Below are positions 742 through 32,004 of a stretch of DNA of 64,000 bases, in pieces. The DNA is from Escherichia coli. Its GTDB lineage: Bacteria > Pseudomonadota > Gammaproteobacteria > Enterobacterales > Enterobacteriaceae. The translations under genes were made by a program, and so were the position numbers. The stretch lies in NCBI RefSeq assembly GCF_036507355.1, contig NZ_AP027877.1; one strand, given 5' to 3'. The number at the start of each line of letters is the position of its first letter. Position 1 is the stretch's first letter. The notes under the pieces are model-generated. The model saw nothing but the letters and a program-made list of their open reading frames with translations. It searched no databases and was not told where the DNA came from.

Positions 742-759
742 CGTTTTGTGGTTTTGTAG

Positions 760-830: not shown

Positions 831-849
831 ATGTAGACCCGATAAACCC

Positions 850-3347: not shown

Positions 3348-4542
<1,195 letters not shown>

Positions 4543-4659
4543 CAAGAGAACGCAACAGCGCACTTGCTTTGCCACAGTTGAATTTTGTGCCGTAACGATG
4601 TGCAAGCATGTAAGCATAAGGAGTCAAGGTATAGCGTGTTACTTAGTTACTCGGATTAA

Positions 4660-5137: not shown

Positions 5138-5186
5138 CGTTGATACCGCTCTGGCCCACAGCGCCAGAGCGGTTTTCCATCCTGCC

Positions 5187-7302: not shown

Positions 7303-7312
7303 CTCTTTCCCC

Positions 7313-8032
7313 TCAGCGGCTCATCAGCACTTCAGCAATATGCATCACTTTGACCGGCTGGCCTTCCCGTTGCAGTCGACCGCCAATGTTCAGCAGGCAG
7401 CTAACGTCTGCGCCAATCAAAAATTCCGGCTTTGCGTCCATCAGATGTAATACTTTCTCTTTCACCATCTCACCGGATATCTCGGCCATCTTGACCGAGA
7501 ACGTCCCGCCAAAGCCGCAACAGGTATCCTGATCGGCAAACGTCAACAGCTCCAGTCCGCGCACGTTTTTCAGCAGCGTAAGCGGCTCTTCCTTCACTCC
7601 CAGTTTGCGGGTCAGGCTACAGGAAGGATGATACACAGCGCGGCCCTGCAGGCTGGCACCAACGTCCACCACACCCAGTTTGTTGACGATAAAGGAGGTG
7701 AGATCCTGCATACGCGCGGAAACTTTCTCAGCACGCAGCGCCCATTCCGGTTCATCGGCCAGATACGTCGGGTAGCTTTTAACCGCGTAGGTGCAGGAGC
7801 CCGCCGGGGAGATAATCGGATCGTCGTTGTCTTCCAGCGCGGCGATCAGGTTTTTCATCCCGGGAATCGCCTCTTTGATGTAACCGCTGTTGATGGCTGG
7901 CTGACCGCAACACCCTTGCTTCTCGGGGAAATTAACGCGACAACCCAGTTTTTCCAGCAGCAATACGGAGTCTCGTGCCATCCGTGATTTCAGTGCGTCA
8001 CCAATACAGGTGACAAAGAAATTTACATTCAC
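7313..8032 (-). CDS. lutA: LutA/YkgE-family Cys-rich Fe-S oxidoreductase subunit (239 aa)
   Basis: CCG-type Cys-rich domain (FVTCIGD.., CCGQPA.., CCGFGG); first gene of the lutABC-like trio. Confidence 0.85.
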   Translation of the reverse strand: MNVNFFVTCIGDALKSRMARDSVLLLEKLGCRVNFPEKQGCCGQPAINSGYIKEAIPGMKNLIAALEDNDDPIISPAGSCTYAVKSYPTYLADEPEWALRAEKVSARMQDLTSFIVNKLGVVDVGASLQGRAVYHPSCSLTRKLGVKEEPLTLLKNVRGLELLTFADQDTCCGFGGTFSVKMAEISGEMVKEKVLHLMDAKPEFLIGADVSCLLNIGGRLQREGQPVKVMHIAEVLMSR

Positions 8033-8069
8033 AATAACTACTCCATTGCTTCATTTCTGTTTATTGCGC

Positions 8070-8087
8070 TTGATATCGCGATATCAA
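8070..8087. promoter_or_regulatory. Perfect 18-bp palindrome TTGATATCGCGATATCAA between the dld-like stop and lutA start
   Basis: Read directly from sequence; self-complementary; no T-run follows on either strand, so more likely an operator than a terminator. Confidence 0.3.
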
Positions 8088-8106
8088 ACAAATGTTCATT
8101 CGTATT

Positions 8107-9804: not shown

Positions 9805-10239
9805 GGAGGGCGGCTCTCCGCTCCTTATATCAGGGCCAGTGAAAATGGCCATAAGTTCATTTGTACGACAAAACAGAATATTCCCTCAATCAATATCCAC
9901 ATGCAATACCCCATTTTATTTCTTTCGGCACCGCTCACATTTTTTAATGAAATTACCACTACCACATAATTCATACTCCGTTCTTTTACTGGATGCCAAA
10001 ACGCTTATTTCATTTATTGCAAAGACCATTTCATACCTATTAATGATTAACTCTAATGGGTATTATTATATTTAGTGGTTATTCATATTTAATAAAAAAA
10101 TAACATTATTTATACAATTATTAACCTTTGTAACTTTATTTCACTGAAGCGATTCAGTTTGCATTTTTTATTTTATTATTAAGGTAGCCTCCTTCCCCCT
10201 AAATATAGTTAAGTCTAAAAAAGTAAATCGAGAATTGTA

Positions 10240-11793
10240 ATGCACGAATATTTAATGTTTGCCCTGGCACTCTCTCCTTTGCTGCTGATGGTATTTTTAA
10301 TACTGAAATTAAAAATGCCCATCCATTATTCCGTACTGATCTCTTTGGTATTCACCGCTGCACTATCGGCAATATTCTGGGAAATGCCCACACAGAATCT
10401 GAAAGCCGCGATAGGCTATGGTGCACTGAAGGGACTATGGCCGATCGTAATTGTTATCCTCGGCGCTATCTTCAGTTATAACGTCATGCAGGCGACCAAA
10501 GCGCTGGATATTCTGCGCGATATTCTCGCCAGCATTAGCGAAGATAAGCGTATTCAGGTGCTGCTGATTTCATGGTGTTTTGGTGGATTTCTTGAAGCCG
10601 CTGCGGGCTATGGCACGGCGGTCGCTATTCCGATCGGTATTCTCATTGCGCTGGGATTCAACCCGTTGAAGGCGGCGATTGCTTCCCTCGTAGCAAATAC
10701 CGTTCCGACCGCATTTGGCGCGGTTGGGATCCCAGTTTCTATTCTGGCAGAGCAGGTTAATCTGCCGGTTTATACCTTAGGCGGAACCATTATTTTGCAG
10801 CTCGCGCTGTTTAATATCCTGCTGCCGTTTGTGATTGTCTGCATTATTGGCGGTGGCCTGAAAGCCATTCGCGGCGTATTTCTGATCACGTTGATTTGCG
10901 GCATTTCCACGCTGGTTCCGCAATATTTTGTCGCCATCCATCTTGGCGCGGAATTACCCGCCTTTGCCGGTAGCCTGGTCAGCCTGTTTGCCGTGGCGAT
11001 GGTCAGTCGCCTGCGCAAAGGGAAAACCGATCCCGAGTGGCGCATTGAGGTCAGCCATACCCGCGAAACCACGCCGCGCTCGGCAAAAGTGTTGTTCCGG
11101 GTTGGCTCTATTTATCTGTTTATTTTTGTGTTTATCCTGCTGTGTTCGCCGCTGTTCCCGACAATAAAAAGCGTGGCATCCCAACTGGCTTCGGTGCTGC
11201 ATTTCACGTTGGCTGACGGCAAAACGATGGCGCTGAAAGTTGAATGGGCGACCACACCGGGGATGCTGATCATCTTTGCGACCATTATCGGCGGTTTTAT
11301 TCAGGGAGCGTCCGCACGTGGGATGCTGGAAGTATTTATCAAAACGATTTTCCAGCTTAAAAACTCTATCGTCGCAATTATGGCGATCGTCGCGCTGGCC
11401 ACGGTGATGGATCTCAGCGGGATTATCTCCACGCTGGCCCAGTCGATTGTCGATCTGACCGGCAGCTCGTACGTCTTCCTCGCCCCGGTGATTGGCGCGC
11501 TGGGCACGTTCGTGACCGGCAGCGATACCAACTCGAACATTCTGTTCGGCAAGCTGCAAACCATTGCCGCCAGCAAGTTACATATCGATCCTAACTGGCT
11601 GGCGGCGGCCAATACCTCTGGCGCTACGGGGGGGAAAATGATTTCGCCGCAAAGCATCGCCATCGCAGTTTCTGCCACCAAAATGGACGGTCAGGCCAAC
11701 CAGATTATGTCTGGCACCATGAAATACTGCTGCGCCTACATTGTGATCCTCGGCCTGAAAGTCGGTCTGTTTTATTACTGGTTTATGGCGTAA
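10240..11793 (+). CDS. L-lactate permease, LctP family (517 aa)
   Basis: Polytopic membrane protein with the LctP-family N-terminus; divergent from the dld-like operon across a 435-bp AT-rich region. Confidence 0.8.
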   Translation: MHEYLMFALALSPLLLMVFLILKLKMPIHYSVLISLVFTAALSAIFWEMPTQNLKAAIGYGALKGLWPIVIVILGAIFSYNVMQATKALDILRDILASISEDKRIQVLLISWCFGGFLEAAAGYGTAVAIPIGILIALGFNPLKAAIASLVANTVPTAFGAVGIPVSILAEQVNLPVYTLGGTIILQLALFNILLPFVIVCIIGGGLKAIRGVFLITLICGISTLVPQYFVAIHLGAELPAFAGSLVSLFAVAMVSRLRKGKTDPEWRIEVSHTRETTPRSAKVLFRVGSIYLFIFVFILLCSPLFPTIKSVASQLASVLHFTLADGKTMALKVEWATTPGMLIIFATIIGGFIQGASARGMLEVFIKTIFQLKNSIVAIMAIVALATVMDLSGIISTLAQSIVDLTGSSYVFLAPVIGALGTFVTGSDTNSNILFGKLQTIAASKLHIDPNWLAAANTSGATGGKMISPQSIAIAVSATKMDGQANQIMSGTMKYCCAYIVILGLKVGLFYYWFMA

Positions 11794-11995
11794 ACCATTG
11801 TCAACCCCGTCAAATTCGCGGCAATCGAATTTGACGACATAGTGACCAAAAAGGTTTACACCGCCCCGGGAACGGAACGAGGCAACAGACTTTACGATTT
11901 GTCGGCGCTGACTAAAATAGCGCCGATGTTTCAAATCGAGGATTGTTGTTATGTTGTTCTGGAAAAAGATGGTGAAGAAGTTCGACGCCTTTTCC

Positions 11996-12350
11996 GGTGA
12001 TGCTGCCAACTTACTGATTTAGTGTATGATGGTGTTTTTAAGGTGCTTGCGTGGCTTCCATTTCCATCAGATGTCCTTCCTGCTCCGCTACTGAAGGCGT
12101 GGTGCGTAACGGCAAAAGCACTGCCGGACATCAGCGCTATCTCTGCTCTCATTGCCGTAAAACATGGCAACTGCAGTTCACTTACACCGCCTCTCAGCCC
12201 GGTACGCACCAGAAAATCATTGATATGGCCATGAATGGCGTCGGATGTCGCGCCAGTGCACGCATTATGGGCGTTGGCCTCAACACGATTTTCCGCCATT
12301 TAAAAAACTCAGGCCGCAGTCGGTAACCTCGCGCATACAGCCGGGCAGTG
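11996..12350 (+). mobile_element. IS1 left portion (~355 bp), truncated by an IS2 insertion
   Basis: IS1 terminus GGTGATGCTGCCAACTTACTGATTTAGTGTATGATGGTG at 11996; intact insA; sequence switches to the IS2 terminus at 12351. Confidence 0.85.
12051..12326 (+). CDS. insA: IS1 InsA (91 aa, variant allele)
   Basis: [68 protein letters not shown].. Confidence 0.9.
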
Positions 12351-12979
12351 TAGACTGGCCCCCTGAATCTCCAGACAACCAATATCACTTAAATAAGTGA
12401 TAGTCTTAATACTAGTTTTTAGACTAGTCATTGGAGAACAGATGATTGATGTCTTAGGGCCGGAGAAACGCAGACGGCGTACTACACAGGAAAAGATCGC
12501 TATCGTTCAGCAGAGCTTTGAACCGGGAATGACGGTCTCCCTTGTTGCCCGGCAACATGGTGTGGCAGCCAGCCAGCTATTTCTCTGGCGTAAGCAATAC
12601 CAGGAGGGAAGTCTTACTGCTGTGGCTGCCGGAGAACAGGTCGTTCCTGCCTCTGAACTTGCTGCCGCCATGAAGCAGATTAAAGAACTCCAGCGCCTGC
12701 TCGGCAAAAAAACGATGGAAAATGAACTCCTTAAAGAAGCCGTTGAATATGGGCGAGCAAAAAAGTGGATAGCGCACGCGCCCTTATTGCCCGGGGATGG
12801 GGAGTAAGCTTCGTCAGCCGTTGTCTCCGGGTGTCGCGTGCGCAGTTGCACGTCATTCTCAGACGAACCGATGACTGGAAGGAAGGCCGCCGCAGCCGTC
12901 ACACGGATGATACGGATGTGCTTCGCCGTATACACCATGTTATCGGAGAGCTGCCCACATATGGTTATCGTCGGGTATC
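12351..12979 (+). mobile_element. IS2 left ~630 bp, 3' part deleted
   Basis: IS2 terminus TAGACTGGCCCCCTGAATCTCCAGACAACCAATATCACTTAAATAAGTGATAGTC at 12351; insC intact; insD reading frame leaves IS2 after ..PTYGYRRV near 12979. Confidence 0.85.
12442..12807 (+). CDS. insC: IS2 OrfA / InsC (121 aa)
   Basis: [56 protein letters not shown]..; A7 slippery run at 12707-12713. Confidence 0.9.
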
Positions 12980-13235
12980 CGGTCCCACCTTGCAGGTTTT
13001 ACGTACCCGCCAGTCGCCCGATGGCTGCGAGGATGGCAGTTACTACTACCTCGTGGATATGCAGAGAAAAACCGTCCAGCCACTGATGAATGCGCTGTGT
13101 ATTGCCGATAACATCAAACTGGAATACCAGGAGGTGACGGACCCGTATACCAAAGAAAAATACTTTGAGTACGCCCATGACGGCAAACTGATGGGGCAGC
13201 TACTGATACCCTCGAACCCTGACAATCAGGAATAA
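12765..13235 (+). pseudogene. Chimeric ORF: IS2 InsD N-terminus fused in frame to the 3' part of a YafY/YfjS-family lipoprotein gene
   Basis: N-terminal half is InsD (..[21 protein letters not shown]); C-terminal half (..[39 protein letters not shown]..) parallels the intact lipoprotein at 55404..55856. Confidence 0.7.
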
Positions 13236-13258
13236 AAACAACGATAAAGGAAACAGAA

Positions 13259-13726
13259 ATGACAATACGTTCACTAAGTCGGTTTGTGCTGGTGGGTGTA
13301 CTGCTCGCGAGCTTTAATGCCTCTGCTATCCCGGGGTTCTGGCAGCAGGGTTACGGTCAGGGCAATACGGAATACAGTGTGACCGAAGCCAGCGGGAAGA
13401 CGTTTACCATCAACTGCACAGGGAACCCGGACCAGAATGGTTTTTATCAGCATTCAGTCTTTCTTACCCTTGCCGATGACAAGATGGTCAGTTCGCACGA
13501 TGACGACACTACTATCACCGTAGTGATGGATCACCAGCAGTACATTATTCCGTCCAGCCTGGGCTGGCGTAACGGCGATAACGCCTGGTTTGACTTCATC
13601 AGCAATATCTCTGAGGCCGGGCAGTTCGACGTCTACGTCAATGACCACAAAGCAGGGACCTTCACTGCGGACCGGAAGAACGCTGAGAAAGTTCTGTCCA
13701 CTCTCGGAGACTGCAGCAACGACTGA
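13259..13726 (+). CDS. Secreted protein of unknown function, prophage-remnant module (YkfB-position)
   Basis: N-terminal signal peptide [23 protein letters not shown]; position between lipoprotein fragment and DUF905 gene. Confidence 0.55.
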
Positions 13727-13802
13727 TAGTAGTATCTTCCCCAGCAAATCCACCCCGACAGCTAGCAGGCTGCCGGGGTTTTCTTTTATCAGGAGCCCGA
13801 AA

Positions 13803-14042
13803 ATGACCCAATCCGTGTTGCTGCCACCGGGGCCTTTCACCCGGAGACAAGCGCAAGCGGTCACTACCACGTACAGCAATATCACACTCGAAGACGACCA
13901 GGGCAGTCACTTCCGTCTGGTGGTTCGTGATACTGAAGGCCGGATGGTCTGGCGGGCATGGAACTTTGAGCCGGATGCCGGTGAAGGTCTTAACCGCTAT
14001 ATCCGCACCTCAGGCATCCGTACAGACACGGCCACCCGCTGA
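13803..14042 (+). CDS. Small DUF905-like protein (79 aa, YkfF-position)
   Basis: ATG at 13803 inside ORF 13590..14042; size and position as in CP4-6/CP4-57-type modules. Confidence 0.5.
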
Positions 14043-14139
14043 TCGCGAAGCATTTACCCGCATTCACCTCCCCGAACACACTTTATATCCCCATACGCCA
14101 GCCATCGCCGCTGGCGTTTTTATTGACGGAGACATACCC

Positions 14140-14598
14140 ATGACAACACAGACGCAGCACGACCTCGCACCCGCTAACCAACCCGAATTTGAACTGACCG
14201 TCACGCCGGTCCCCGATGAACAGCGTATCGATTTCTGGCCACAGTACTTTGGCGCTATCCCGCAGTGGCTACTCCTGGAGCCGCATATCTTCGCCTGGAT
14301 GGACCGCTTCTGTGAGGGCTACAGCGGTGGTATCTGGTCGTTCTACACCCTCAGCAATGGCGGCGCATTTATGTCCCCCGAGCCTGACAACGATGAGACA
14401 TGGCGTCTGTTTAACTGCCTGAACGGTAACGATGCCCAAATGAGTGCAGAAGCAGCAGGTATTGCTGTCTGCCTGATTGCGTATAGCCACCATGCCTGCC
14501 GTACAGAATGTGACGCGATGACCGCACACTATTACCGCCTGCGGGAGTATGCCATGCAACATCCAGAGGCTCACGCCATTCTGCGTATTATCGACTGA
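14140..14598 (+). CDS. Antirestriction protein, ArdB/KlcA-like (YafX/YfjX family)
   Basis: ..[51 protein letters not shown].. ; paralogue of 58068..58538. Confidence 0.75.
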   Translation: MTTQTQHDLAPANQPEFELTVTPVPDEQRIDFWPQYFGAIPQWLLLEPHIFAWMDRFCEGYSGGIWSFYTLSNGGAFMSPEPDNDETWRLFNCLNGNDAQMSAEAAGIAVCLIAYSHHACRTECDAMTAHYYRLREYAMQHPEAHAILRIID

Positions 14599-14613
14599 CC
14601 GAAGGAGCAACAG

Positions 14614-15090
14614 ATGAAACAGCTTTCCTTTTTACCCGGCGAGATGACGCCACAGGACCGGCGTCTCATTCAGCGGGCGCTCAGGGCTCTGGACCGCCAC
14701 CTGCATGAGCCCGGCGTAGCCTTCACCTCTACCCACGCCGTACGTGAATGGCTGCGACTGCATATGGCCGCGCTTGAGCGGGAAGAGTTCCGGGTGTTGT
14801 ATCTGGACAACCAGAATCAGTTGATTGCCCATGAAACGCTCTTCACCGGCACGATTAACCGCACCGAGGTGCATCCCCGGGAGGTGGTCAAACGTGCTCT
14901 GCACTTCAACGCGGCGGCGGTGATACTCGCGCATAACCATCCTTCCGGCGAGACGACACCTAGCCAGGCCGACAAAACCCTCACGCAGCGACTGGTTCAG
15001 GTGCTTCAGCTGGTGGATATCCGTGTCCCTGACCATCTGATTGTCGGTGGCAGGCAAATCTATTCGTTCGCAGAACACGGTCTGCTTTGA
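14614..15090 (+). CDS. RadC-like JAB-domain protein (YkfG/YfjY/YeeS family)
   Basis: JAMM-like motif ..AAAVILAHNHPSGETTPSQADKTLTQRL.. Confidence 0.8.
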   Translation: MKQLSFLPGEMTPQDRRLIQRALRALDRHLHEPGVAFTSTHAVREWLRLHMAALEREEFRVLYLDNQNQLIAHETLFTGTINRTEVHPREVVKRALHFNAAAVILAHNHPSGETTPSQADKTLTQRLVQVLQLVDIRVPDHLIVGGRQIYSFAEHGLL

Positions 15091-15098
15091 GGTATTAC

Positions 15099-15320
15099 AT
15101 GAAAATTATCAGTAAACGCAGGGCAATGACGATATACCGCCAGCATCCTGAGTCCCGAATCTTTCGCTACTGCACCGGCAAATACCAGTGGCACGGTAGC
15201 GTCTGTCATTACACCGGCAGGGACGTTCCGGATATCGCCGGAGTCCTCGCGGTATACGCCGAACGCCGCCAAGACCGCAATGGGCCCTATACCTGCCTGA
15301 TGAGCATCACCCTGAACTGA
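15099..15320 (+). CDS. DUF987 protein (YkfH/YpjJ/YeeT family)
   Basis: MKIISKRRAMTIYRQHPESRIFRYCTGKYQWHGSVCHYTG.. ; paralogue at 59050..59271. Confidence 0.7.
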   Translation: MKIISKRRAMTIYRQHPESRIFRYCTGKYQWHGSVCHYTGRDVPDIAGVLAVYAERRQDRNGPYTCLMSITLN

Positions 15321-15338
15321 CAATAGTGGAGAACTGTA

Positions 15339-16018
<680 letters not shown>

Positions 16019-16399
16019 ACATTGCGTACAACCTTCCCGATTTACATTTCTGAACTTCCTCCCTTGTTTACCTATTGCGTAATGCGCCTGCTACTACCCG
16101 GCAGGCGCGTTATCTTTTTACGGACAAACAATCATGCAACCAGAAGTTGAAGTATTAACCGATCATAATGAGCTAATTTGTTCGAGCTTTATTGAACACA
16201 TTGCCAACACATTAAATTTAGGAGTGGTGTACAACTAAACCTGCAGCCAAGGATGTATAGTGAGCGAAGCCCTATCAGGCCTTTTTGGTCAGTAGATAAG
16301 ATTGATCTTCGTTGATAGAATTTACTTACACCAGCTGTTACATTAAGATAATTTTTTGGTGGGAGAATGATAAGATCTTACGTAACAATTTGATTTTAA

Positions 16400-16475
16400 T
16401 GGTGCCGATAATAGGAGTCGAACCTACGACCTTCGCATTACGAATGCGCTGCTCTACCAACTGAGCTATATCGGC
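16400..16475 (-). tRNA. thrW: tRNA-Thr (anticodon CGU)
   Basis: Reverse complement reads GCCGATATAGCTCAGTTGGTAGAGCAGCGCATTCGTAATGCGAAGGTCGTAGGTTCGACTCCTATTATCGGCACCA. Confidence 0.9.
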
Positions 16476-19245: not shown

Positions 19246-20301
19246 ATGAAAAAGAGCACTCTGGCATTAGTGGTGATGGGCATTGTGGCATCTGCATCCG
19301 TACAGGCCGCAGAAATATATAACAAAGACGGTAATAAACTGGATGTCTATGGCAAAGTTAAAGCCATGCATTATATGAGTGATAACGACAGTAAAGATGG
19401 CGACCAGAGTTATATCCGTTTTGGTTTTAAAGGCGAAACACAAATTAACGATCAACTGACTGGTTATGGTCGTTGGGAAGCAGAGTTTGCCGGTAATAAA
19501 GCAGAGAGTGATACTGCACAGCAAAAAACGCGTCTCGCTTTTGCCGGGTTGAAATATAAAGATTTGGGTTCTTTCGATTATGGTCGTAACCTGGGCGCGT
19601 TGTATGACGTGGAAGCCTGGACCGATATGTTCCCGGAATTTGGTGGCGACTCCTCGGCGCAGACCGACAACTTTATGACCAAACGCGCCAGCGGTCTGGC
19701 GACGTATCGGAACACCGACTTCTTCGGCGTTATCGATGGCCTGAACTTAACCCTGCAATATCAAGGGAAAAACGAAAACCGCGACGTTAAAAAGCAAAAC
19801 GGCGATGGCTTCGGCACGTCATTGACATATGACTTTGGCGGCAGCGATTTCGCCATTAGTGGGGCCTATACCAACTCAGATCGCACCAACGAGCAGAACC
19901 TGCAAAGCCGTGGCACAGGCAAGCGTGCAGAAGCATGGGCTACAGGTCTGAAATACGATGCCAATAATATTTATCTGGCAACTTTTTATTCTGAAACACG
20001 CAAAATGACGCCAATAACTGGCGGCTTTGCCAATAAGACACAGAACTTTGAAGCGGTCGCTCAATACCAGTTTGACTTTGGTTTGCGTCCATCGCTGGGT
20101 TATGTCTTATCGAAAGGGAAAGATATTGAAGGTATCGGTGATGAAGATCTGGTCAATTATATCGATGTCGGTGCTACATATTATTTCAACAAAAATATGT
20201 CAGCGTTTGTTGATTATAAAATCAACCAACTGGATAGCGATAACAAATTGAATATTAATAATGATGATATTGTCGCGGTTGGCATGACCTATCAGTTTTA
20301 A
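19246..20301 (+). CDS. phoE: outer membrane phosphoporin PhoE (351 aa)
   Basis: [37 protein letters not shown].. ending ..VGMTYQF. Confidence 0.95.
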
Positions 20302-20309
20302 TGATTATT

Positions 20310-20330
20310 GCCGGATGTGATGCATCCGGC
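20310..20330. terminator. Shared hairpin between convergent phoE and crl
   Basis: gccggatg-tgatg-catccggc immediately after the phoE stop. Confidence 0.5.
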
Positions 20331-20339
20331 ACATTTCAC

Positions 20340-20798
<459 letters not shown>

Positions 20799-22043
20799 TT
20801 AACACAAGCGTTTTTCGATCCAGTCGGTGATTTCCTGAAGACCTTTGTCAAAATTCCGATACACCGGGTTAAATGGGATCTCTAATAATTTACCGTCAGC
20901 AGATGATGAGGTGATTAAGCGTGAGTCCTCTTCCGGGCTGAACGGATCGTTCTTCCAGTAGCCTGATAACATTGGCGTTGGGCAGCGACGTCCCAGCAAT
21001 CCTTGCACTTTTAATGAATAGCGATTCAGCTCCACGCGCAACGCTTCATCGGAAGCATCATGCATCCCCAAACGACTCGCCAGAACGTCAAGATACATTT
21101 CCGGCACCTGTTGCTGGCACTTAAAATCACTCAACAGGGTATGAACTACCGGACCAAGACAGGCAACCGCTTTCAGACGCGGCGATTCAAGATATGCCAG
21201 ACGCACGGCAACGTTAGCGCCGAAACGGAAACCAAAGGCCGCGACGCGAGTGTGATCCACCCACGGTACGTTAGGCAGAGCCTTTAAGACGTGCTGATGC
21301 AACAGGCTGGAGTCCTGGGTGAGCTTCCATTTTGATGAAAAGCCCACCGACGGCATATCAATAGTCAGCATCGCAATGCCGCGCGGCGCAAAATAACGTT
21401 CATACAGGCTGTAATAGTCCGTCTGCATCGCATCCAGACCACCACACATTAATACCGTCGGGAACGGGCCATCGCCTTTCGGCATATGCAAAAAGCCGGT
21501 GATGGGCGCACCGCCGGGTACGGTAAACTCCATCTGCCGCATCGTGCCCGGCAGACGCTGAGCGGCCTCTTCATAGGCGCGGTTTGACAAAGTCTGCGCT
21601 TGCTCGGCCAGGTCATCTCCTTTCAGATGAGGATAGGCGGCAATGTTGTACAACGTAGCCGCATGCAGCCAGTGACGACCACTGAGTTGCGGATCTTCTT
21701 CCGCACAGGCTTTTTGTTGCCACACCATCGCCTGGGTGGCCCACTCATAAATCCAGTTGCCGCCACGGTAGCCAATCACCGTATCGTATAAATCATCGTC
21801 GGTACGTTCGGCATCGCTCATCACAATACGTGCCTGGACGTCGAGGATTTCGCGTGGGTCAATGCCGCGCCAGATCCACATCAGACGGTTAATCATGCGA
21901 TACCAGTGAGGGATGGTTTTACCATCAAGGGCCGACTGCACAGGCGGTTGTGCGCCGTGATTAAAGCGGCGGACTAGCGTCGAGGTTTCAGGATGTTTAA
22001 AGCGGGGTTTGAACAGGGTTTCGCTCAGGTTTGCCTGTGTCAT
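20799..22043 (-). CDS. frsA: esterase FrsA (414 aa)
   Basis: Full-length match; alpha/beta hydrolase. Confidence 0.9.
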
Positions 22044-22134
22044 GGATGCAGCCTCCAGAATACTTACTGGAAACTATTGTAACCCGCCTGAAGTTAAAAA
22101 GAACAACGCCCGGCAGTGCCAGGCGTTGAAAAGA

Positions 22135-22593
22135 TTAGCGACCGGAGATTGGCGGGACGAATACGACGCCCATATCCCACGGCTGTTCGATCCAGGTATC
22201 TTGCGGGATATCAACAACATAATCATCAACCAGCGGACGACCAGCCGGTTTTGCAAAGATGGTGACAAAGTGCGCTTTTGGATACATTTCACGAATCGCA
22301 ACCGCAGTACCACCGGTATCCACCAGGTCATCAATAACGATGAAGCCTTCGCCATCGCCTTCTGCGCGTTTCAGCACTTTAAGCTCGCGCTGGTTGTCGT
22401 GATCGTAGCTGGAAATACAAACGGTATCGACATGACGAATACCCAGTTCACGCGCCAGTAACGCACCCGGTACCAGACCGCCACGGCTTACGGCAATAAT
22501 GCCTTTCCATTGTTCAGAAGGCATCAGTCGGCTTGCGAGTTTACGTGCATGGATCTGCAACATGTCCCAGGTGACGATGTATTTTTCGCTCAT
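22135..22593 (-). CDS. gpt: xanthine-guanine phosphoribosyltransferase (152 aa)
   Basis: [50 protein letters not shown].. Confidence 0.95.
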
Positions 22594-22853
22594 GTGAAGT
22601 GTCCCAGCCTGTTTATCTACGGCTTAAAAAGTGTTCGAGGGGAAAATAGGTTGCGCGAGATTATAGAGATCTGGCGCACTAAAAACCAGTATTTCACATG
22701 AGTCCGCGTCTTTTTACGCACTGCCTCTCCCTGACGCGGGATAAAGTGGTATTCTCAAACATATCTCGCAAGCCTGTCTTGTGTTGACAACATTTTCTGC
22801 TAACCCTGTGACCTGCAATACTGTTTTGCGGGTGATCGACAAGGAGACTTAAC

Positions 22854-24311
22854 GTGTCTGAACTGTCTCAATTATCTCCACAGCCGCTGTGGGATATTTT
22901 TGCCAAAATCTGTTCTATTCCTCACCCGTCCTATCATGAAGAGCAACTCGCTGAATACATTGTTGGTTGGGCAAAAGAGAAAGGTTTCCATGTCGAACGC
23001 GATCAGGTAGGTAATATCCTGATTCGTAAACCTGCTACAGCAGGTATGGAAAATCGTAAACCGGTCGTCTTGCAGGCCCACCTCGATATGGTGCCGCAGA
23101 AAAATAACGACACCGTGCATGACTTCACGAAAGATCCTATCCAGCCTTATATTGATGGCGAATGGGTTAAAGCGCGCGGCACCACGCTGGGTGCGGATAA
23201 CGGCATTGGTATGGCCTCTGCACTGGCGGTTCTGGCTGACGAAAACGTGGTTCACGGTCCGCTGGAAGTGCTGCTGACCATGACCGAAGAAGCCGGTATG
23301 GACGGTGCTTTTGGCTTACAGAGCAACTGGTTGCAGGCTGATATTCTGATTAACACCGACTCCGAAGAAGAAGGTGAAATCTACATGGGTTGCGCGGGGG
23401 GTATCGACTTCACCTCCAACCTGCATTTAGATCGTGAAGCGGTTCCAGCTGGTTTTGAAACCTTCAAGTTAACCTTAAAAGGTCTGAAAGGCGGTCACTC
23501 CGGCGGGGAAATCCACGTTGGCCTGGGTAATGCCAACAAACTGCTGGTGCGCTTCCTGGCGGGTCATGCAGAAGAACTGGACCTGCGTCTTATCGATTTC
23601 AACGGCGGCACACTGCGTAACGCCATCCCGCGTGAAGCCTTTGCGACCATTGCTGTCGCAGCTGATAAAGTCGACGCCCTGAAATCTCTGGTGAATACCT
23701 ATCAGGAGATCCTGAAAAACGAGCTGGCAGAGAAAGAGAAAAATCTGGCCTTGTTGCTGGACTCTGTAGCGAACGATAAAGCTGCCCTGATTGCGAAATC
23801 TCGCGATACCTTTATTCGTCTGCTGAACGCCACCCCGAACGGTGTGATCCGCAATTCCGACGTGGCAAAAGGTGTGGTCGAAACCTCCCTGAACGTCGGT
23901 GTGGTGACCATGACTGACAATAACGTAGAAATTCACTGCCTGATCCGTTCTCTGATCGACAGCGGTAAAGACTACGTGGTGAGCATGCTGGATTCGCTGG
24001 GTAAACTGGCTGGCGCGAAAACCGAAGCGAAAGGCGCATATCCTGGCTGGCAGCCGGACGCTAATTCTCCGGTGATGCATCTGGTACGTGAAACCTATCA
24101 GCGCCTGTTCAACAAGACGCCGAACATCCAGATTATCCACGCGGGCCTGGAATGTGGTCTGTTCAAAAAACCGTATCCGGAAATGGACATGGTTTCTATC
24201 GGGCCAACAATCACCGGTCCACACTCTCCGGATGAGCAAGTTCACATCGAAAGCGTAGGTCATTACTGGACACTGCTGACTGAACTGCTGAAAGAAATTC
24301 CGGCGAAGTAA
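22854..24311 (+). CDS. pepD: cytosol nonspecific dipeptidase (485 aa, GTG start)
   Basis: MSELSQLSPQPLWDIFAKICSIPHPSYHEEQLAEYIV.. Confidence 0.95.
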   Translation: MSELSQLSPQPLWDIFAKICSIPHPSYHEEQLAEYIVGWAKEKGFHVERDQVGNILIRKPATAGMENRKPVVLQAHLDMVPQKNNDTVHDFTKDPIQPYIDGEWVKARGTTLGADNGIGMASALAVLADENVVHGPLEVLLTMTEEAGMDGAFGLQSNWLQADILINTDSEEEGEIYMGCAGGIDFTSNLHLDREAVPAGFETFKLTLKGLKGGHSGGEIHVGLGNANKLLVRFLAGHAEELDLRLIDFNGGTLRNAIPREAFATIAVAADKVDALKSLVNTYQEILKNELAEKEKNLALLLDSVANDKAALIAKSRDTFIRLLNATPNGVIRNSDVAKGVVETSLNVGVVTMTDNNVEIHCLIRSLIDSGKDYVVSMLDSLGKLAGAKTEAKGAYPGWQPDANSPVMHLVRETYQRLFNKTPNIQIIHAGLECGLFKKPYPEMDMVSIGPTITGPHSPDEQVHIESVGHYWTLLTELLKEIPAK

Positions 24312-24322
24312 TTATTTGATTT

Positions 24323-24358
24323 GCTGCCGGATGGCGTTTAATCGCCTTCCGGCAGTTT
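24323..24358. terminator. Hairpin between convergent pepD and prfH remnant
   Basis: ctgccggatggcg..cgccttccggcag inverted repeat followed by TTTCA. Confidence 0.45.
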
Positions 24359-24367
24359 CATCCTTCA

Positions 24368-24925
24368 TTATCCTTCGATAAAAGCCATCCCTGTGAACGT
24401 TCGTCGCGGGTTGCCACGTTCAATCTGGTGATGGAACATTCGCCGCTGCGATTTCAGCGCCGCGCTATTTTCCTGTTGCTGCTGCCCCAGCTTCCAGGCA
24501 ATCAGCAATCGCGCCAGCCGTTTGTTAGCATGCTGGCTGCGCTCTGACTGAACCTTCACGCTAATACCGGATGCCAGATGCGTGGCGCGTACCGCCGAGT
24601 CGGTTTTATTGACATGTTGACCGCCCGGCCCCGACGAACGCAGCGTCTCATAACGGATTGCATCCGATTGTTCCTGCTCATCAGCGGTAAAACGCCCAAT
24701 GCCCAGAAACCAGTTTTTGCGCCCATGATGAGGCCGATACGGACTCGGACAAATCCACTGAATAGTGCCGCACCAACTTTCGCTTAATGCCCATGCGTTA
24801 TCGCCATCCAGAGAAATCAGCGCCGAACGCAGCGTGTCAGAGTAGCGGCCTGTTTCTGTTTCCAGCACCGTTACCGCGACGTCTTGTCGGGTAAAAACGA
24901 CCAACAGAGAAGAACGCTGCGCCAA
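24368..24925 (-). pseudogene. prfH: peptide chain release factor H homologue, N-terminally truncated
   Basis: Carries the GGQ motif (..[21 protein letters not shown]..) but lacks the N-terminal segment of full-length PrfH. Confidence 0.75.
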
Positions 24926-25103
24926 TCGGGTAGCCGCGTCCGGGGTGTAAATCTGGCATCCCCACTACGCGCTGCATGTTGGGTAAATTTGCCGTGGTGT
25001 GTAATTGTTGGATCGCTAAACTCTCGATCCACAGGTCATCAGATGCGATAATAAATACCGCATCGGATAAGGGACGAATATATTTGCCCATGTACCATTC
25101 CAT
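24837..25103 (-). pseudogene. ykfJ: RtcB-family RNA ligase N-terminal fragment
   Basis: ..[31 protein letters not shown] then out of register; abuts the prfH remnant. Confidence 0.7.
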
Positions 25104-25408
25104 TTATACTCGTCATACTTCAAGTTGCATGTACTGCGACTGCGTTCGTTCACCCCAGTCACTTACTTATGTAAGCTCCTGGGGATTCACTCGCTTGTCG
25201 CCTTCCTGCAACTCGAATTATTTAGAGTATATAAATATAAAAATCAGGAAATGGCAGACGAATCCAGGGCAAGAAAAAAAGAATTAATCCTGGAAAGATC
25301 TGCAAAGAGTCATTGATAAAGGATTTGTCATGATTTACCTCCTTGCAGTTTGTGGAATAAGAAAACGCGCACATACCAGGCGGGCGTTATTTTCATTGCA
25401 AGCTGGAT

Positions 25409-25861
25409 TTAATGTTGCGGTTTATATCGCATATAAAAATTAGTAAACCAAGCTCCACGGCATTCAACGCGCTGCTGCTTAACTGTCTGAAAACCATAAC
25501 GTTCAAAAAAGGGTTTTGCGGTTATGCTGGCGTCCACCGTAAGTTCGGATTCAGACTTAATCAAAGGTTTTAACAAAGCGCTGGCAACCCCACGGCGGGT
25601 GTATTCAGGGTCAACAAATAACATATCGATATAATGTTCAATGCGGGAAATAAAACCAACCGGTTGTGCATTAATGACTGCAACCCGCACTTGTGATTTC
25701 GCGAGTTTCTCCTTCCAGCGAGATTCGTCAATCTGCGCCCAGGCGGCAATTTGTTGTGGTGAATAATGCTGACTGGCGGTCATCGTAACCGCTCTAATGA
25801 AAATAGCGCATAGTTGCTGAAAATCGCCAGGCTGATAGTTTCTTATTTGTATGTTATTCAT
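25409..25861 (-). CDS. yafP: GNAT-family acetyltransferase YafP (150 aa)
   Basis: [25 protein letters not shown]..; start codon overlaps the dinB stop (ATGA). Confidence 0.8.
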
Positions 25862-26913
25862 AATCCCAACACCAGTTGTCTTTCCATTTGCGGGTCAAGC
25901 AACGTCACGTGCAGCCCCACCAGACGCACACCTCGCCCGCCGCGGCGTTCATCCCAGGTTTTACGCGCGGTGGCGATTAAGTCAGCTTTATTCAGCCGCG
26001 GCCAGACGTGCTCCTGAGTGGTTTGCTGAAAATCGTCGAACTTTAATTTCACTCCCTGGCGAGCAATCAGTAAATCAGGTTTTACCTTTGCCAGACGGCG
26101 TTCAAGTTCCGGATACAGCCGCTCGATAATCGCTTCACATTCAGACCAGTGATGAATATCTTCCGCCATCGTGCGTTCCACGCCGACGGATTTTCGTAAC
26201 CGTTCGCTGTTAACGTCGCGCTCGTCAATCCCCTGACTACGCTCCCACAAAATGCGGCCAAATTTGCCAAAGCGTTTAAGCAGAATCACCAGATCACACT
26301 TTTGTACATCACCGCAGGTCCGCAGCCCCATCGCTTCCAGCTTTGCCGCTGAGACTTTGCCAACACCGGGAATTTTTGCCAGCGGTAAGGTTTGCAGAAA
26401 TGCCGGAACTTCTGCCGGCGTAATCACAAACTGGCCGTTGGGTTTATTCATGTCGGAGGCGATTTTGGCGAGAAACTTTACTGGTGCCACGCCCGCAGAC
26501 GCCGTCAGTTGCAGCTCGCTGAAAATCGTCTGGCGGATTTCCTGGGCGATGAGGGTCGCAGAACCGTGGCAATGGACGCTATCGGTGACATCGAGATAAG
26601 CCTCATCCAGTGACAACGGTTCAATGCGCGAGGTGTAGCGCGAGAAGATTTCACGGATATGATTTGAGGCTTCTTTGTAGGCGTCAAAGCGCCCCGGAAG
26701 CAAGGTGAGATGTGGGCATAATTTGAGCGCCATCCCTGTCGGCATAGCGCTGCGTACGCCAAATTTACGCGCGGGATAATTGGCGGTGCTGATCACCCCC
26801 CGACGTTCGCGGCTGCCGCCAATAGCAATAGGGATATCGCGCAGGGCGGGATTGTCGCGCATCTCCACTGCGGCGAAAAAGCAGTCCATATCCACATGAA
26901 TGATTTTACGCAT
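25858..26913 (-). CDS. dinB: DNA polymerase IV (351 aa)
   Basis: [34 protein letters not shown].. Confidence 0.95.
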
Positions 26914-26983
26914 TACTCACCTCTCAACACTGGTAAAGTATACAGTGATTTCAGGGTTTGAGAAATGCGTAAAGATTCAGCAT

Positions 26984-27874
26984 TTAGCGCGTTCGCTGCG
27001 AAAGCACCTGCTGCTTATCCAGCTTTTGCACCAGCGGCTGCACCACTTTATCCCCATGCTGACCAAAGTATTGATACAGCGTATCGGACGCACTTTTGGT
27101 CAGCACCATAATCTCAATACGCCGATTGCCCGCGCTTTGCGGATTTTTGGCATCCAGCAGCATCTGGTCCGCCATTGCGCTTACCTGCATCACTTTATCT
27201 TCCGGCATTCCGGCCTCTTCCAGCACCCGACGAGCTGAAAGCGCGCGATCGCCCGAAAGGTTCCAGTTGTTGTAGATATTGTTTTTGTAGGCCATCGCAT
27301 CGGTATGCCCGGTAATAATAATTTTGTTATCGAGCGAGTCGAACACTGGCGCGAGCTCCACCAGCAAAGTTTTAAAGAACGGCATAATCTGCGCGCTGCC
27401 GCGTTCGAACATATTGCGATTCTGGTCGTCTTTAATCAGCACGCGTAATCCCTGCGGGACAATCTCCATCTCCAGATTCGCTTCCATATGCGCATCACGG
27501 GCAATGGTGTTGATACTGGTTGCCAACTCGCCAAGCTCGGTGGCGGATTTCTTCTTCAGCAGCGCCGTTTTCTCATTCACATCACGCGCTTTTTTCTCCG
27601 TCTCTTCCGGCACCGCCACGGTGGCAGGTTTTGGCGGATGAGACGGGCTGATTTTATTTAACGGCGACAGCCCACCACCGTTAAAAATCGACTGCCCGTG
27701 CAGCGCGGCGATAATGCTTTCACGCTCGGATTTACTGACGCTGTTGACAATCAACTTTATCGTCGTCACCAAAGGGGCCGAGCGTATTTCCGAGGTTTCT
27801 GCCCGCTTTACCCTGGACGCGATGCCCGGCAAGCAGATGGCGATTGACGCCGATCTTAACGCCGGGTTGATCAA
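26984..27874 (-). pseudogene. lafU: Flag-2 MotB-like LafU remnant (OmpA-like C-terminal domain only)
   Basis: C-terminal OmpA/MotB domain (..IIITGHTDAMAYKNNIYNNWNLSGDRALSARRVLEEAGMPEDKV..NRRIEIMVL); N-terminal part of the ORF is non-native and overlaps lfhA. Confidence 0.6.
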
Positions 27875-29453
27875 CCAGGCACAGGCGCAAACCCGGCGTA
27901 AAGATGTTGCCAGCGAGGCCGATTTCTACGGCGCGATGGACGGGGCATCGAAGTTTGTGCGCGGGGATGCCATCGCCGGGATGATGATTCTGGCGATCAA
28001 CCTAATCGGCGGCGTCTGTATCGGCATCTTTAAATACAACCTGAGCGCCGACGCCGCCTTCCAGCAATATGTGCTGATGACCATCGGCGATGGGCTGGTG
28101 GCGCAGATCCCTTCCCTACTGCTCTCCACCGCGGCGGCGATTATCGTCACCCGCGTCAGCGACAACGGCGATATCGCCCATGACGTGCGCCACCAACTGC
28201 TGGCAAGCCCGACGGTGCTCTACACCGCCACTGGGATCATGTTTGTGCTGGCGGTGGTGCCAGGAATGCCGCACCTGCCGTTTTTGCTGTTCAGCGCCCT
28301 GCTTGGCTTTACCGGCTGGCGGATGAGCAAACGCCCGCAGGCGGCGGAGGCGGAGGAGAAAAGCCTCGAAACGCTAACCCGCACCATCACCGAAACCAGC
28401 GAGCAACAGGTCAGTTGGGAAACCATTCCGCTGATCGAGCCCATCAGTTTAAGCCTCGGCTTCAAGCTGGTGGCGCTGGTCGATAAAGCGCAGGGTAACC
28501 CGCTCACCCAGAGGATTCGCGGCGTGCGGCAGGTGATTTCCGACGGCAACGGCGTGCTGCTGCCGGAGATCCGCATTCGGGAAAACTTCCGTCTCAAGCC
28601 GAGCCAGTACGCCATTTTCATCAACGGCATTAAGGCTGATGAAGCGGATATTCCGGCGGATAAACTGATGGCCCTGCCCTCCAGCGAAACCTACGGCGAG
28701 ATTGACGGCGTGCTGGGGAACGACCCGGCGTACGGGATGCCAGTGACCTGGATCCAGGCGGCGCAGAAAGCGAAGGCGCTGAATATGGGGTATCAGGTGA
28801 TCGACAGCGCCAGCGTGATTGCCACCCATGTGAACAAGATTGTCCGCAGCTATATTCCTGATTTGTTTAACTATGATGACATCACGCAGTTGCATAACCG
28901 TTTGTCGTCGATGGCACCGCGCCTGGCGGAGGATTTAAGCGCGGCGCTCAATTACAGCCAATTGCTGAAAGTGTACCGGGCGCTGCTGACCGAAGGCGTT
29001 TCCCTGCGCGATATCGTCACCATCGCCACCGTGCTGGTCGCAAGTAGCACGGTGACCAAAGATCATATTCTGCTGGCAGCTGATGTGCGCCTGGCACTGC
29101 GGCGCAGCATTACCCATCCGTTCGTTCGCAAGCAGGAGCTGACGGTGTATACGCTGAATAATGAGCTGGAAAATCTGCTGACCAACGTGGTGAATCAGGC
29201 GCAACAGGGCGGGAAAGTGATGCTCGACAGCGTGCCGGTCGACCCGAATATGCTCAACCAGTTCCAGAACACGATGCCGCAGGTAAAAGAGCAGATGAAA
29301 GCGGCGGGGAAAGACCCGGTGCTGCTGGTGCCGCCGCAGCTTCGCCCTTTGCTGGCGCGCTATGCGAGATTGTTTGCGCCGGGGCTGCATGTGCTGTCGT
29401 ATAACGAAGTGCCGGATGAGCTGGAGTTGAAGATAATGGGGGCGCTGATGTAG
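27714..29453 (+). pseudogene. lfhA: Flag-2 FlhA-like LfhA, missing ~130 N-terminal residues
   Basis: Begins mid-protein at ..VVTKGAERISEVSARFTLDAMPGKQMAIDADLNAGLI.. (FlhA family). Confidence 0.7.
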
Positions 29454-29454
29454 G

Positions 29455-29665
<211 letters not shown>

Positions 29666-29675
29666 CTGCGCACAA

Positions 29676-30173
29676 TTATGAAATGATACGCTCCCCGGCA
29701 CTAAAATCCGTTATGTCTCCCGCCCAACCAATGGGATATAACCCTCGCGCCACATCGCGATGGAACGTTGAGAATGGCCAATCACTCACTTGCTTTACCC
29801 AGCCATGTTTCACTGGATTTATATAAATATAATCAACATGATGTCGGTAATCTGTGGTATTGCGAATGGCATGCTCCCAAAAACGCGGTTGCCAGATATT
29901 TTTCAATCCGCAAGCATGGGTGAACTGCTTTTTAATCTCCCGCCAGCGAGAGGAAAAATCATCATCGCTTTCGGGTAATGTCCATATGCAATGCATATGC
30001 TCCGGCAAAACGACCCAGGCGTTAATTTCAAAAGGTCTGTCTCGCTTAACGTTAATAATGGCGTTACGGAGCGTCTGGAACTGGGTGGTCAGAAGATGGC
30101 TTCGACGATTCCGTAAATTTACCGTGAAAAACCATGTTCCCCCCTTGATGTAATACCGACGATATTCCGACAT
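29676..30173 (-). CDS. rayT: REP-associated tyrosine transposase (165 aa)
   Basis: MSEYRRYYIKGGTWFFTVNLRNRR.. ; flanked by REP units on both sides. Confidence 0.85.
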   Translation of the reverse strand: MSEYRRYYIKGGTWFFTVNLRNRRSHLLTTQFQTLRNAIINVKRDRPFEINAWVVLPEHMHCIWTLPESDDDFSSRWREIKKQFTHACGLKNIWQPRFWEHAIRNTTDYRHHVDYIYINPVKHGWVKQVSDWPFSTFHRDVARGLYPIGWAGDITDFSAGERIIS

Positions 30174-30249
30174 AGCGACTCCTTTTTCTCAACGGTAAGA
30201 GGAAAAGGAAAGGTCGGCAATGAGGTGATGGAATAACGGGAAAGCGGCT

Positions 30250-30350
30250 CGCAAAAACGCACAGATTTGTAGGCATGATAAGACGCGCCAGCGTCGCATC
30301 AGGCACCTGCGTACAACTGCCGGATGCGGCGTGAATGCCTTATCCGTCCT
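30250..30350. repeat. REP unit on the other side of rayT
   Basis: Same tgtaggcatgataagacgcgccagcgtcgcatcaggca..ccggatgcggcgtgaatgccttatccg motif. Confidence 0.65.
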
Positions 30351-31098
30351 ACAAAATCGTCTCTTCCGTCAAAATCCGTCGCGCGCCCAAAAAATGATCC
30401 TGCCAGAAAGGTTCAGCTAACCGACTTACCCGAATGGTTTCCCCGGTGCGCGGTGACTCAATAAACTGACCGTCGCCCAGATACACCCCCATATGGTCGG
30501 CAATCTCGCGGCTGTGGATATGGAAAAACAGCAAATCTCCCCGGCGCAGGTCGTTATTCGCCACAATCGTTGCCCGATGGTAGTGATACATCTCATTAGC
30601 CGTACGCGGGAGCTTCGCCTCGAGGATCTTGTTGTAGGCATAAAAAACCAACCCGCTACAGTCGAAGCCTTTATCGGGCCGCGTGCCACCCCAGACGTAA
30701 GGCTTGCCAAGCTGCTGCTCCAGGCGGTGAATCGCCACTTCGGTAATGTTATGCAGATGGTCGCTGCTTAAAAAGTGGTTGTTTTCCGCCAGCGCCTGCC
30801 AGCGTCTGTCACTCGCCTTGAGCGGCGCAGGAAACCATTCTGGATGCTGTTTTATCTGTTCGCGGTTGTGCTGGCGCAGCGCCCTTCTGCTTTCGGCATT
30901 GCCTTCCACAATATAGCTGGCCTGTTTTTTCAGATGGGTTTGGTACTGTTTTAATAAACGCGCACGGTTTTGCATCCGCTGGCGGGCGGCGTAGCTGAAA
31001 GAGATATGTGATGTGGTGGCGCTGGCAAATGAAGAAAACGGCAAACAAATCAACAGTAATCCCGACAATACAAAGGATGGAATCGACGGCAAGGACAT
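30349..31098 (-). CDS. yafL: NlpC/P60-family lipoprotein peptidase YafL
   Basis: NlpC/P60 motif ..GKPYVWGGTRPDKGFDCSGLVFYAY..; start taken at MSLPSIPSFVLSGLLLICLP inside ORF 30349..31158. Confidence 0.75.
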   Translation of the reverse strand: MSLPSIPSFVLSGLLLICLPFSSFASATTSHISFSYAARQRMQNRARLLKQYQTHLKKQASYIVEGNAESRRALRQHNREQIKQHPEWFPAPLKASDRRWQALAENNHFLSSDHLHNITEVAIHRLEQQLGKPYVWGGTRPDKGFDCSGLVFYAYNKILEAKLPRTANEMYHYHRATIVANNDLRRGDLLFFHIHSREIADHMGVYLGDGQFIESPRTGETIRVSRLAEPFWQDHFLGARRILTEETIL

Positions 31099-31307
31099 AC
31101 TCAATAATGGCTGGTCATGCTTTAATGTTGCAGTGTATCCCGGATCGTTTCTGAACAAACTTAATAAACCATTATTATAAAATTAACATATATATTTCAG
31201 TGGATTATGTAAATACATCAGTTTATTGAATTGCTCATGAATTGCCGCTGTTGCTCAATTGAGCTACAATTCAAGCTGAATATATATACAGCACAGGAGA
31301 TATCCCA

Positions 31308-31568
31308 ATGGCTGCAAATGCATTTGTTCGTGCCCGAATCGATGAGGATTTGAAGAATCAGGCGGCGGACGTACTGGCCGGGATGGGGCTGACCATCTCT
31401 GACCTGGTTCGCATAACCCTCACAAAGGTCGCGCGTGAAAAGGCATTGCCGTTTGATTTACGCGAGCCTAATCAATTAACCATTCAATCAATCAAAAACA
31501 GCGAAGCTGGCGTTGGTGTTCATAAGGCCAAAGACGCCGATGATTTATTTGATAAATTAGGAATTTAA
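31308..31568 (+). CDS. dinJ: antitoxin DinJ (86 aa)
   Basis: MAANAFVRARIDEDLKNQAADVLAGMGLTISDLVRITLTKVAREKALPFDLREPNQ.. Confidence 0.9.
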   Translation: MAANAFVRARIDEDLKNQAADVLAGMGLTISDLVRITLTKVAREKALPFDLREPNQLTIQSIKNSEAGVGVHKAKDADDLFDKLGI

Positions 31569-31570
31569 AT

Positions 31571-31849
31571 ATGATTCAAAGGGATATTGAATACTCGGGA
31601 CAATTTTCAAAGGATGTAAAACTTGCACAAAAGCGTCATAAGGATATGAATAAATTGAAATATCTTATGACGCTTCTTATCAATAATACTTTACCGCTTC
31701 CAGCTGTTTATAAAGACCACCCGCTGCAGGGTTCATGGAAAGGTTATCGCGATGCTCATGTCGAACCGGACTGGCTCCTGATTTACAAACTTACCGATAA
31801 ACTTTTACGATTTGAGAGAACTGGAACTCACGCGGCGCTCTTTGGGTAA
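31571..31849 (+). CDS. yafQ: mRNA interferase toxin YafQ (92 aa)
   Basis: MIQRDIEYSGQFSKDVKLAQKRHKDMNKLKYLMTLLINNTLPLPAVYKDHPLQGSWKGYRDAHVEPDWLLIYK.. Confidence 0.9.
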   Translation: MIQRDIEYSGQFSKDVKLAQKRHKDMNKLKYLMTLLINNTLPLPAVYKDHPLQGSWKGYRDAHVEPDWLLIYKLTDKLLRFERTGTHAALFG

Positions 31850-32004
31850 AGCCCGCTTCCGATGAAATTTGTAAACCCTGCGCCGACAGGCTTGCGTAAA
31901 ACTCTTTTGGTGATAATGTGAGCCTTCCAAATCCAGACTATTCCGATTTGGGATCCATTTTGCCGTCCTGGCGTGTGTAACCGTTTTATCAAGGAATAAG
32001 CAGT

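Follow-up and report, generated by a model that had tools for sequence, protein, structure and literature searches.

An rtcB2-prfH operon for ribosome rescue and repair reduced to two remnants, very probably inactive, by a 1,027-bp deletion in an Escherichia coli chromosome

The region between yafP and pepD in the window (the whole 64,000-nucleotide stretch of E. coli DNA that was analysed) holds, with a probability of about 95%, two inactive pieces of rtcB2-prfH, the operon for ribosome rescue and repair, made by one 1,027-bp deletion. The allele is the ykfJ/prfH deletion of K-12, which has been in the literature since 2006 and was experimentally tested in 2022; it is an already known and ordinary allele. 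The two pieces descend from prfH and rtcB2, but both fail defining features of functional members of their families. The coordinates of the features are collected in Table 1.

Mechanical calling of open reading frames gives two frames on the minus strand, 24368..24925 (185 aa) and 24837..25103 (88 aa), in the E. coli chromosomal gene order frsA-gpt-pepD, prfH-rtcB2 remnants, yafP-dinB-lafU-lfhA. The 185-aa frame matches the NCBIfam PrfH model TIGR03072 over profile positions 31-200 of 200 (E = 2.9e-82; 275 bits, cutoff 166.65), and also the Pfam RF-1 domain PF00472 (E = 2.3e-24). The 88-aa frame matches the models of PrfH-linked RtcB, NF007153/TIGR03073, only over profile positions 1-69 of 379 (E = 8.7e-31 for NF007153), and its score of 107 bits is below the family cutoff of 407; the match of the stub to Pfam RtcB (PF01139) covers positions 1-33 of 426, with 23 bits against a cutoff of 27. 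Both family matches break off exactly at the junction described below, and the two frames overlap by 89 nt in different frames. The abutment of an N-terminal RtcB fragment and a PrfH without its N-terminus, as described in the initial annotation, is thus real and far beyond chance. Plus-strand open reading frames inside the region are short (35-69 aa) and without support.

Table 1. Position and nature of the features at the rtcB2-prfH remnant locus, in coordinates of the window
Feature	Coordinates	Strand	Description
rtcB2 5' remnant	24894..25091	-	codons 1-66 (MGKYIRPL...FFSVGRF), N-terminal motif included; equivalent of K-12 ykfJ
rtcB2 out-of-frame tail	24837..24893	-	codon 67 completed across the junction, then 21 codons in the -1 frame of prfH DNA; TGA at 24837-24839
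Deletion junction	24885..24893	-	one surviving copy (TACCCGACA) of the 9-bp imperfect direct repeat TACCCGRCA
prfH 3' remnant	24368..24889	-	codons 32-204 and TAA stop, 173 aa; without ATG, RBS and residues 1-31
GGQ motif (G120 G121 Q122), peptidyl-tRNA hydrolase domain	24617..24625	-	intact in sequence and translation
Adjacent inverted repeat	24324..24355	.	16-nt arms with 88% complementarity and a 0-nt loop; located between the stops of the convergent genes pepD and prfH
ERIC-type imperfect palindrome, 127 bp	25105..25231	.	inverted arms 25105-25129 / 25207-25231; not part of the deletion

The rtcB2 remnant keeps nucleotides 1-200 of the gene, that is 66 codons and 2 nt, and is deleted from codon 67 onward. 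Its true ATG is at 25091, the start annotated in the intact loci, and not at 25103; residues 1-4 of the mechanical 88-aa frame lie upstream of both the family match and this annotated start. RtcB2 residues 1-66 are almost identical to those of the sampled intact alleles, and the position directly upstream of prfH and the flanks from yafP to pepD are the same. The full-length ligase domain (∼379 aa, in which the metal-binding and His-GMP catalytic residues lie) is not present, residues 67-379 being deleted, and the PGAP annotation of the stub in A30 and O157 reads 'RtcB family protein, missing C-terminus'.

The second remnant is by descent the prfH gene, as its score is above the curated equivalog cutoff of TIGR03072. 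Of a full-length PrfH (∼204 aa, with residues 1-31 in its rRNA-recognition domain) only residues 32-204 are present, and these are identical at 172 of 173 positions to the same residues of EcPrfH in the structure PDB 7SA4 (chain 8), with E166G as the only change. PGAP labels this piece 'missing N-terminus', and its K-12 counterpart b0236 is annotated as a pseudogene. The GGQ motif had been reported as intact in the initial annotation, and residues G120, G121 and Q122 are indeed retained.

Alignment of the window with intact rtcB2-prfH loci of E. coli (STEC313, Z135-7, 702/18 and others) displays one contiguous gap of 1,027 bp with flanks of more than 95% identity, which bears out the earlier proposal that a single deletion took most of rtcB and the start of prfH. 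With reference to intact STEC313, in which rtcB2 (1140 nt) and prfH (615 nt) overlap by ATGA, the deletion spans rtcB2 nt 201-1140 (codons 67-379) and prfH nt 1-91 (codons 1-31), and includes the overlapping ATGA stop/start, the prfH RBS and the prfH ATG. As whole-locus alignment with MAFFT misplaced the 200-nt rtcB2 stub and inflated the between-class distances, anchor-based extraction of both parts was used instead.

In intact alleles, the two copies of the direct repeat flank the 1,027-bp segment, TACCCGGCA in rtcB2 and TACCCGACA in prfH; the repeat is perfect over 6 bp and agrees at 8 of 9 positions over 9 bp. The left context in most intact alleles other than STEC313 is TTTT-TACCCGGCA-CTGG in rtcB2, and the right context is GAAGC-TACCCGACA-AGACG in prfH; the left copy reads TACCCGGCA in nine of the 13 intact alleles and the right copy TACCCGACA in seven of the 13. 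The window, A30 and O157 have ...TTTTTACCCGACAAGACG across the junction and K-12 has ...TACCCGGCAAGACG, the surviving repeat copy being TACCCGACA in the window and TACCCGGCA in K-12 and some other strains, while the form TTTTTACCCG(A/G)CAAGACG is common to the window, K-12, O157:H7, A30 and others. The breakpoint can be placed to within the 9-bp repeat and no finer. A blunt breakpoint without microhomology, as seen from STEC313 alone, was rejected; it is due to SNPs in the STEC313 allele, and other intact alleles show TACCCGRCA at both ends. The presence of a repeat at the breakpoints, a classical signature, points to replication slippage or illegitimate recombination between short direct repeats as the probable mechanism of the deletion.

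A 100-nt probe of the junction is covered to at least 80% in 2,689 of 5,426 complete E. coli genomes, and the 1,027-bp deleted segment is at least 80% present in 2,675 of them, indicating that the two alleles split the species about evenly. Junction carriers include K-12, O157:H7 and O55:H7; intact examples are O104:H4, O111:H8 and many clinical isolates. Its occurrence in 2,689 complete genomes, reference strains among them, shows that the junction is no assembly artefact of the window. A repeated and independent origin of the short form might be read from the existence of two junction variants, TACCCGACA and TACCCGGCA, and deletion at a direct repeat could in principle recur. However, the 13 deletion alleles compared, K-12 MG1655, O157:H7 and A30 among them, all have the junction at one position and differ there by only two SNPs, both inside the repeat, where they are explicable by the site of crossover resolution or by a later synonymous CGA/CGG change. 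Moreover, nucleotide diversity of the rtcB2 stub is 0.009 in the sample of 13 deletion alleles as compared to 0.032 in 13 intact alleles, and this near-invariance favours a single origin. A recurrent origin is accordingly unlikely given the invariant stub, and that the short form arose repeatedly or is an artefact is, taken together, a highly improbable reading.

This allele has itself been shortened further in some strains. A nested deletion of 169 bp is found in four of the 13 junction alleles (APEC E123, RIVM_C039629, 2021CK-01784 and CNR65D6); it is equivalent to window positions 24534-24702, is flanked by GCAT microhomology, removes GGQ and shifts the frame. These doubly deleted alleles have the same primary 1,027-bp junction as the window, but the extra loss is theirs only, the window retaining the 24534-24702 segment. 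The 169-nt segment is present in 4,755 of the 5,426 complete genomes and its flanks in about 5,364-5,376, so that ∼600 genomes have lost the segment; these are probably about a fifth of the junction carriers, if all of them carry the junction. The loss was counted by segment presence, as a 100-nt cross-deletion probe was unusable: pieces less than 550 bp apart were joined, and intact loci scored 100%.

Examination of expression signals was directed to the in-frame starts available to the prfH remnant. None of GTG 24868, TTG 24904 and TTG 24925 is preceded by a Shine-Dalgarno (SD) sequence above background, their duplex energies ranging from -1.5 to -3.7 against a window background of -2.5 ± 2.5. 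GTG 24868 is the start of the historical 166-aa K-12 annotation; TTG 24925 is a mechanical extension of the PrfH frame into rtcB2-derived DNA and is meaningless as a start; an in-frame stop lies upstream of these candidates at 24967. The native prfH ATG with its GGAGGG SD (duplex ΔG -9.8 kcal mol−1) lay inside the deleted segment, and the start and RBS of prfH, coupled to rtcB2 through the ATGA overlap, are lost with it. The search for an in-frame full-length PrfH start with a ribosome-binding site, which would have spoken against the initial annotation, thus found none. The rtcB2 stub keeps its native start and a weak SD (ΔG -5.2). A simple scan of 24200-25450 called no sigma-70-like promoter, and its terminator-like calls, lying inside coding sequence, were unconvincing and were rejected. 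The inverted repeat between the pepD and prfH stops is likely to form a bidirectional terminator hairpin, as judged from its arms; the simple terminator scan did not call it.

The function of the intact system defines what has been lost. PrfH binds the A site of 70S ribosomes cleaved after A1493 of 16S rRNA and hydrolyses the peptidyl-tRNA; once the 30S subunit is free, its 16S rRNA is resealed by RtcB2 (PMC9304027). The rRNA-recognition domain of PrfH comprises residues 2-98 and 180-204, where residues 9-12 make up one of the walls of the A1493P pocket and are in contact with C1914; Q122, mutated by Tian et al. (2022), is the catalytic residue, and H294 of RtcB2 was mutated in the same work (PMC9304027). 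The pocket wall falls in the deleted residues 1-31, and the 66-residue RtcB2 stub is without the entire catalytic core, H294 included. Baranov (2006) reported a deletion of ∼1000 nt in K12, W3110 and O157 relative to CFT073 and argued that any truncated product would be without a central β-strand of domain 2 (PMC1586002); Tian et al. regarded both K12 proteins as 'presumably inactive' (PMC9304027). Maviza (2022) found colicin E3 sensitivity unchanged on knocking out the truncated pair in BW25113, and that the intact operon of ATCC 25922 protects against colicin E3 and, on a plasmid, rescues BW25113 (PMC9223846). The missing residues 9-12, the PGAP and K-12 pseudogene annotations and the BW25113 knock-outs all agree with the earlier judgement that the gene is probably not functional. 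We infer that both remnants are non-functional in the source strain, which would therefore be without this defence against 16S-cleaving ribotoxins.

The observation that could argue for a residual role is the state of the prfH remnant itself. Its frame is open over 173 codons in nine of the 13 sampled deletion alleles, the GGQ is intact, and synonymous changes make up most of its polymorphism (pN/pS 0.11 for the five deletion alleles sampled first, as compared to 0.07 in intact alleles). An N-terminally truncated PrfH might on this account still be made, from GTG 24868 or by re-initiation after the RtcB2 stub, whose native start and weak SD are kept and whose stop at 24837 lies within the prfH frame, and purifying selection would then maintain a GGQ-dependent or other activity. 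In its more specific form, a start-less PrfH(32-204) would be translated at a low level and kept by selection for a GGQ-dependent or ribosome-binding role unrelated to colicin E3 repair. Such a retained role, if true, would explain the open frame and the mostly synonymous variation in ∼80% of the carriers. The variants private to the deletion class, 9 synonymous to 6 nonsynonymous, do include fewer nonsynonymous changes than naive neutrality predicts (binomial p = 0.003), though in a comparison with only 13 of ∼2,675 intact genomes; they do not differ from those of the intact class, 31 to 12 (Fisher p = 0.52; 9 deletion and 13 intact alleles), and the counts speak neither for nor against residual constraint.

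This pattern is, however, open to a simpler explanation. In the five-allele comparison, 16 of the 28 segregating sites have both states among intact alleles, and among the nine deletion alleles, where 34 sites segregate, no more than 15 variants do not occur in the 13 intact alleles; some of these variants are probably 'private' just because so few of the ∼2,675 intact alleles were sampled. The 3' half of prfH in K-12 also has a haplotype like that of intact STEC313. The shared variation and this STEC313-like half indicate recombination between the two classes on the pepD side, and import from intact alleles accounts for the low nonsynonymous variation more simply than the residual constraint that could also produce it. 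The lack of an SD before any in-frame start, the loss of residues 1-31 with the pocket wall and a central β-strand of the recognition domain, the further loss of the GGQ segment in about one fifth of junction carriers and the BW25113 knock-outs without effect on colicin E3 sensitivity (PMC9223846) all stand against a truncated but active PrfH. Its synthesis under purifying selection is hence considered very unlikely, and a role of PrfH(32-204) apart from colicin E3 repair no less so.

The stop of the RtcB2 stub raises another route to a PrfH product. The programmed frameshift site of RF2 is CUU UGA C, and the stub stop lies in the context CUC-UGA-C (24845-24836), where a +1 slip would land exactly in the prfH frame at a GAC codon and fuse the stub to PrfH residues 49-204. 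Judged on the letters of the site, however, the slipped tRNA-Leu(GAG) would face UCU with a middle-position mismatch, in place of the UUU available in RF2, and no SD stimulator of the AGGGGG type precedes the site by 3 nt; an AGG at a distance of 7 nt is all that could serve. Every intact allele has this site within normal prfH coding sequence (Y47-S48-D49), so that the resemblance would have come about by chance from the deletion, and the product would carry 21 junk residues and be without PrfH residues 1-48. Programmed +1 frameshifting was rejected on account of the mispairing and the missing properly spaced stimulator, and its likelihood appears vanishingly small.

The counterpart in K-12 MG1655, the pseudogenes ykfJ (b0235) and prfH (b0236) at NC_000913 253467-254202, is the same locus between yafP and pepD, with the same 1,027-bp deletion, junction position and stub and remnant lengths and ∼98% nucleotide identity; it differs by a few SNPs, with CGG in the junction repeat in place of CGA in the window, and E166G is a difference from K-12 that the window allele has in common with A30. 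Compared with the intact operon (ATCC 25922, CFT073, STEC313; PDB 7SA4), which occupies the same genomic position, the retained parts are orthologous and nearly identical, whereas RtcB2 67-379, the ATGA translational-coupling overlap, the prfH SD and ATG and PrfH 1-31 are absent from the window; of the two forms, only the intact one gives protection against colicin E3 (PMC9223846). The GGQ peptidyl-tRNA hydrolase domain is held in common with ArfB (YaeJ) and RF1/RF2, and the remnant weakly matches the prfB, prfA and ArfB models, but every score is far below the cutoffs, so that the remnant is not a member of these families, and it is without a complete ribosome-recognition module of any kind.

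Variation is also seen at the borders of the locus. On the pepD side, some intact-operon strains have a gene for a 'metal-dependent hydrolase' after prfH, replacing pepD-proximal sequence, and their PrfH ends in ...FIAV or ...FVAV, not in ...FIEG; the changed end and the hydrolase gene suggest a different 3' junction or an insertion there. On the yafP side, the palindrome at 25105-25231 lies 14 nt upstream of the rtcB2 ATG and occurs in multiple copies per genome; it is named ERIC-type after the consensus. STEC313 and some strains with the deletion, NT1F31 for one, do not have the 72-bp core of this repeat. An Rfam scan found no known RNA in the remnants, the only hit being a sub-threshold full-length V_AS5 match over the palindrome (48.9 bits; gathering score 96).

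K-12 and A30, the closest match, have the toxin-antitoxin pair yafN-yafO between dinB and yafP; it is absent from the window, where dinB (25858-26913) overlaps yafP (25409-25861) by 4 nt (25858-25861), as in STEC313. The combination of a K-12-type rtcB2-prfH deletion and a dinB operon without yafNO marks the window as a mosaic. The best match of positions 20000-32000 among the 5,426 complete E. coli genomes is A30, with 98.1% over 12 kb, and O157:H7/O55:H7 reach 98.0%; the 1.1-kb remnant region alone is 99.7% identical to A30. Either the source strain is not closely represented among these genomes or the 20000-32000 segment is recombinant.

Farther out, lafU (minus strand) and lfhA, an N-terminally truncated FlhA homologue (27714-29453, plus strand), overlap head-to-head within 26984-29453, which is presumably the scar left where the Flag-2 lateral-flagella cluster was deleted, as known from K-12; this would be a second deletion-fused remnant pair, 2 kb from that of rtcB2-prfH. 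Two Rfam matches to naRNA4 (REP-derived) above the gathering score, at 29531-29608 and 30272-30349 on the minus strand, flank the position of the REP-associated transposase rayT of A30. The tRNA-Thr(CGT) gene thrW (16400-16475) adjoins proA and is the attachment site of CP4-6 in K-12; the 16 kb beyond it (1-16400) may be an integrated island.

The sequence of events that best explains the locus can be put as follows. PrfH of intact strains frees the peptide from ribosomes cut at 16S A1493/G1494 by colicin E3-type toxins, and RtcB2 religates the rRNA. One deletion between the imperfect 9-bp repeats has cut out rtcB2 codon 67 through prfH codon 31. What is left is 66 codons of RtcB2, followed by 22 codons out of frame, and PrfH 32-204, which has no start but still bears the GGQ; having probably arisen once, this allele would have spread by descent and recombination. 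To the literature are added the base-level breakpoints in the 9-bp repeat, the ∼50:50 allele split in 5,426 genomes and the nested 169-bp deletion, details which are modest and leave the known picture of the system unchanged. At this locus, a ribosome-repair defence against toxins that cleave 16S rRNA, such as colicin E3 and CdiA-CT(ECL), is naturally polymorphic for presence and absence; the strain of the window carries the null allele and is predicted to be without that protection, like K-12 and O157:H7.
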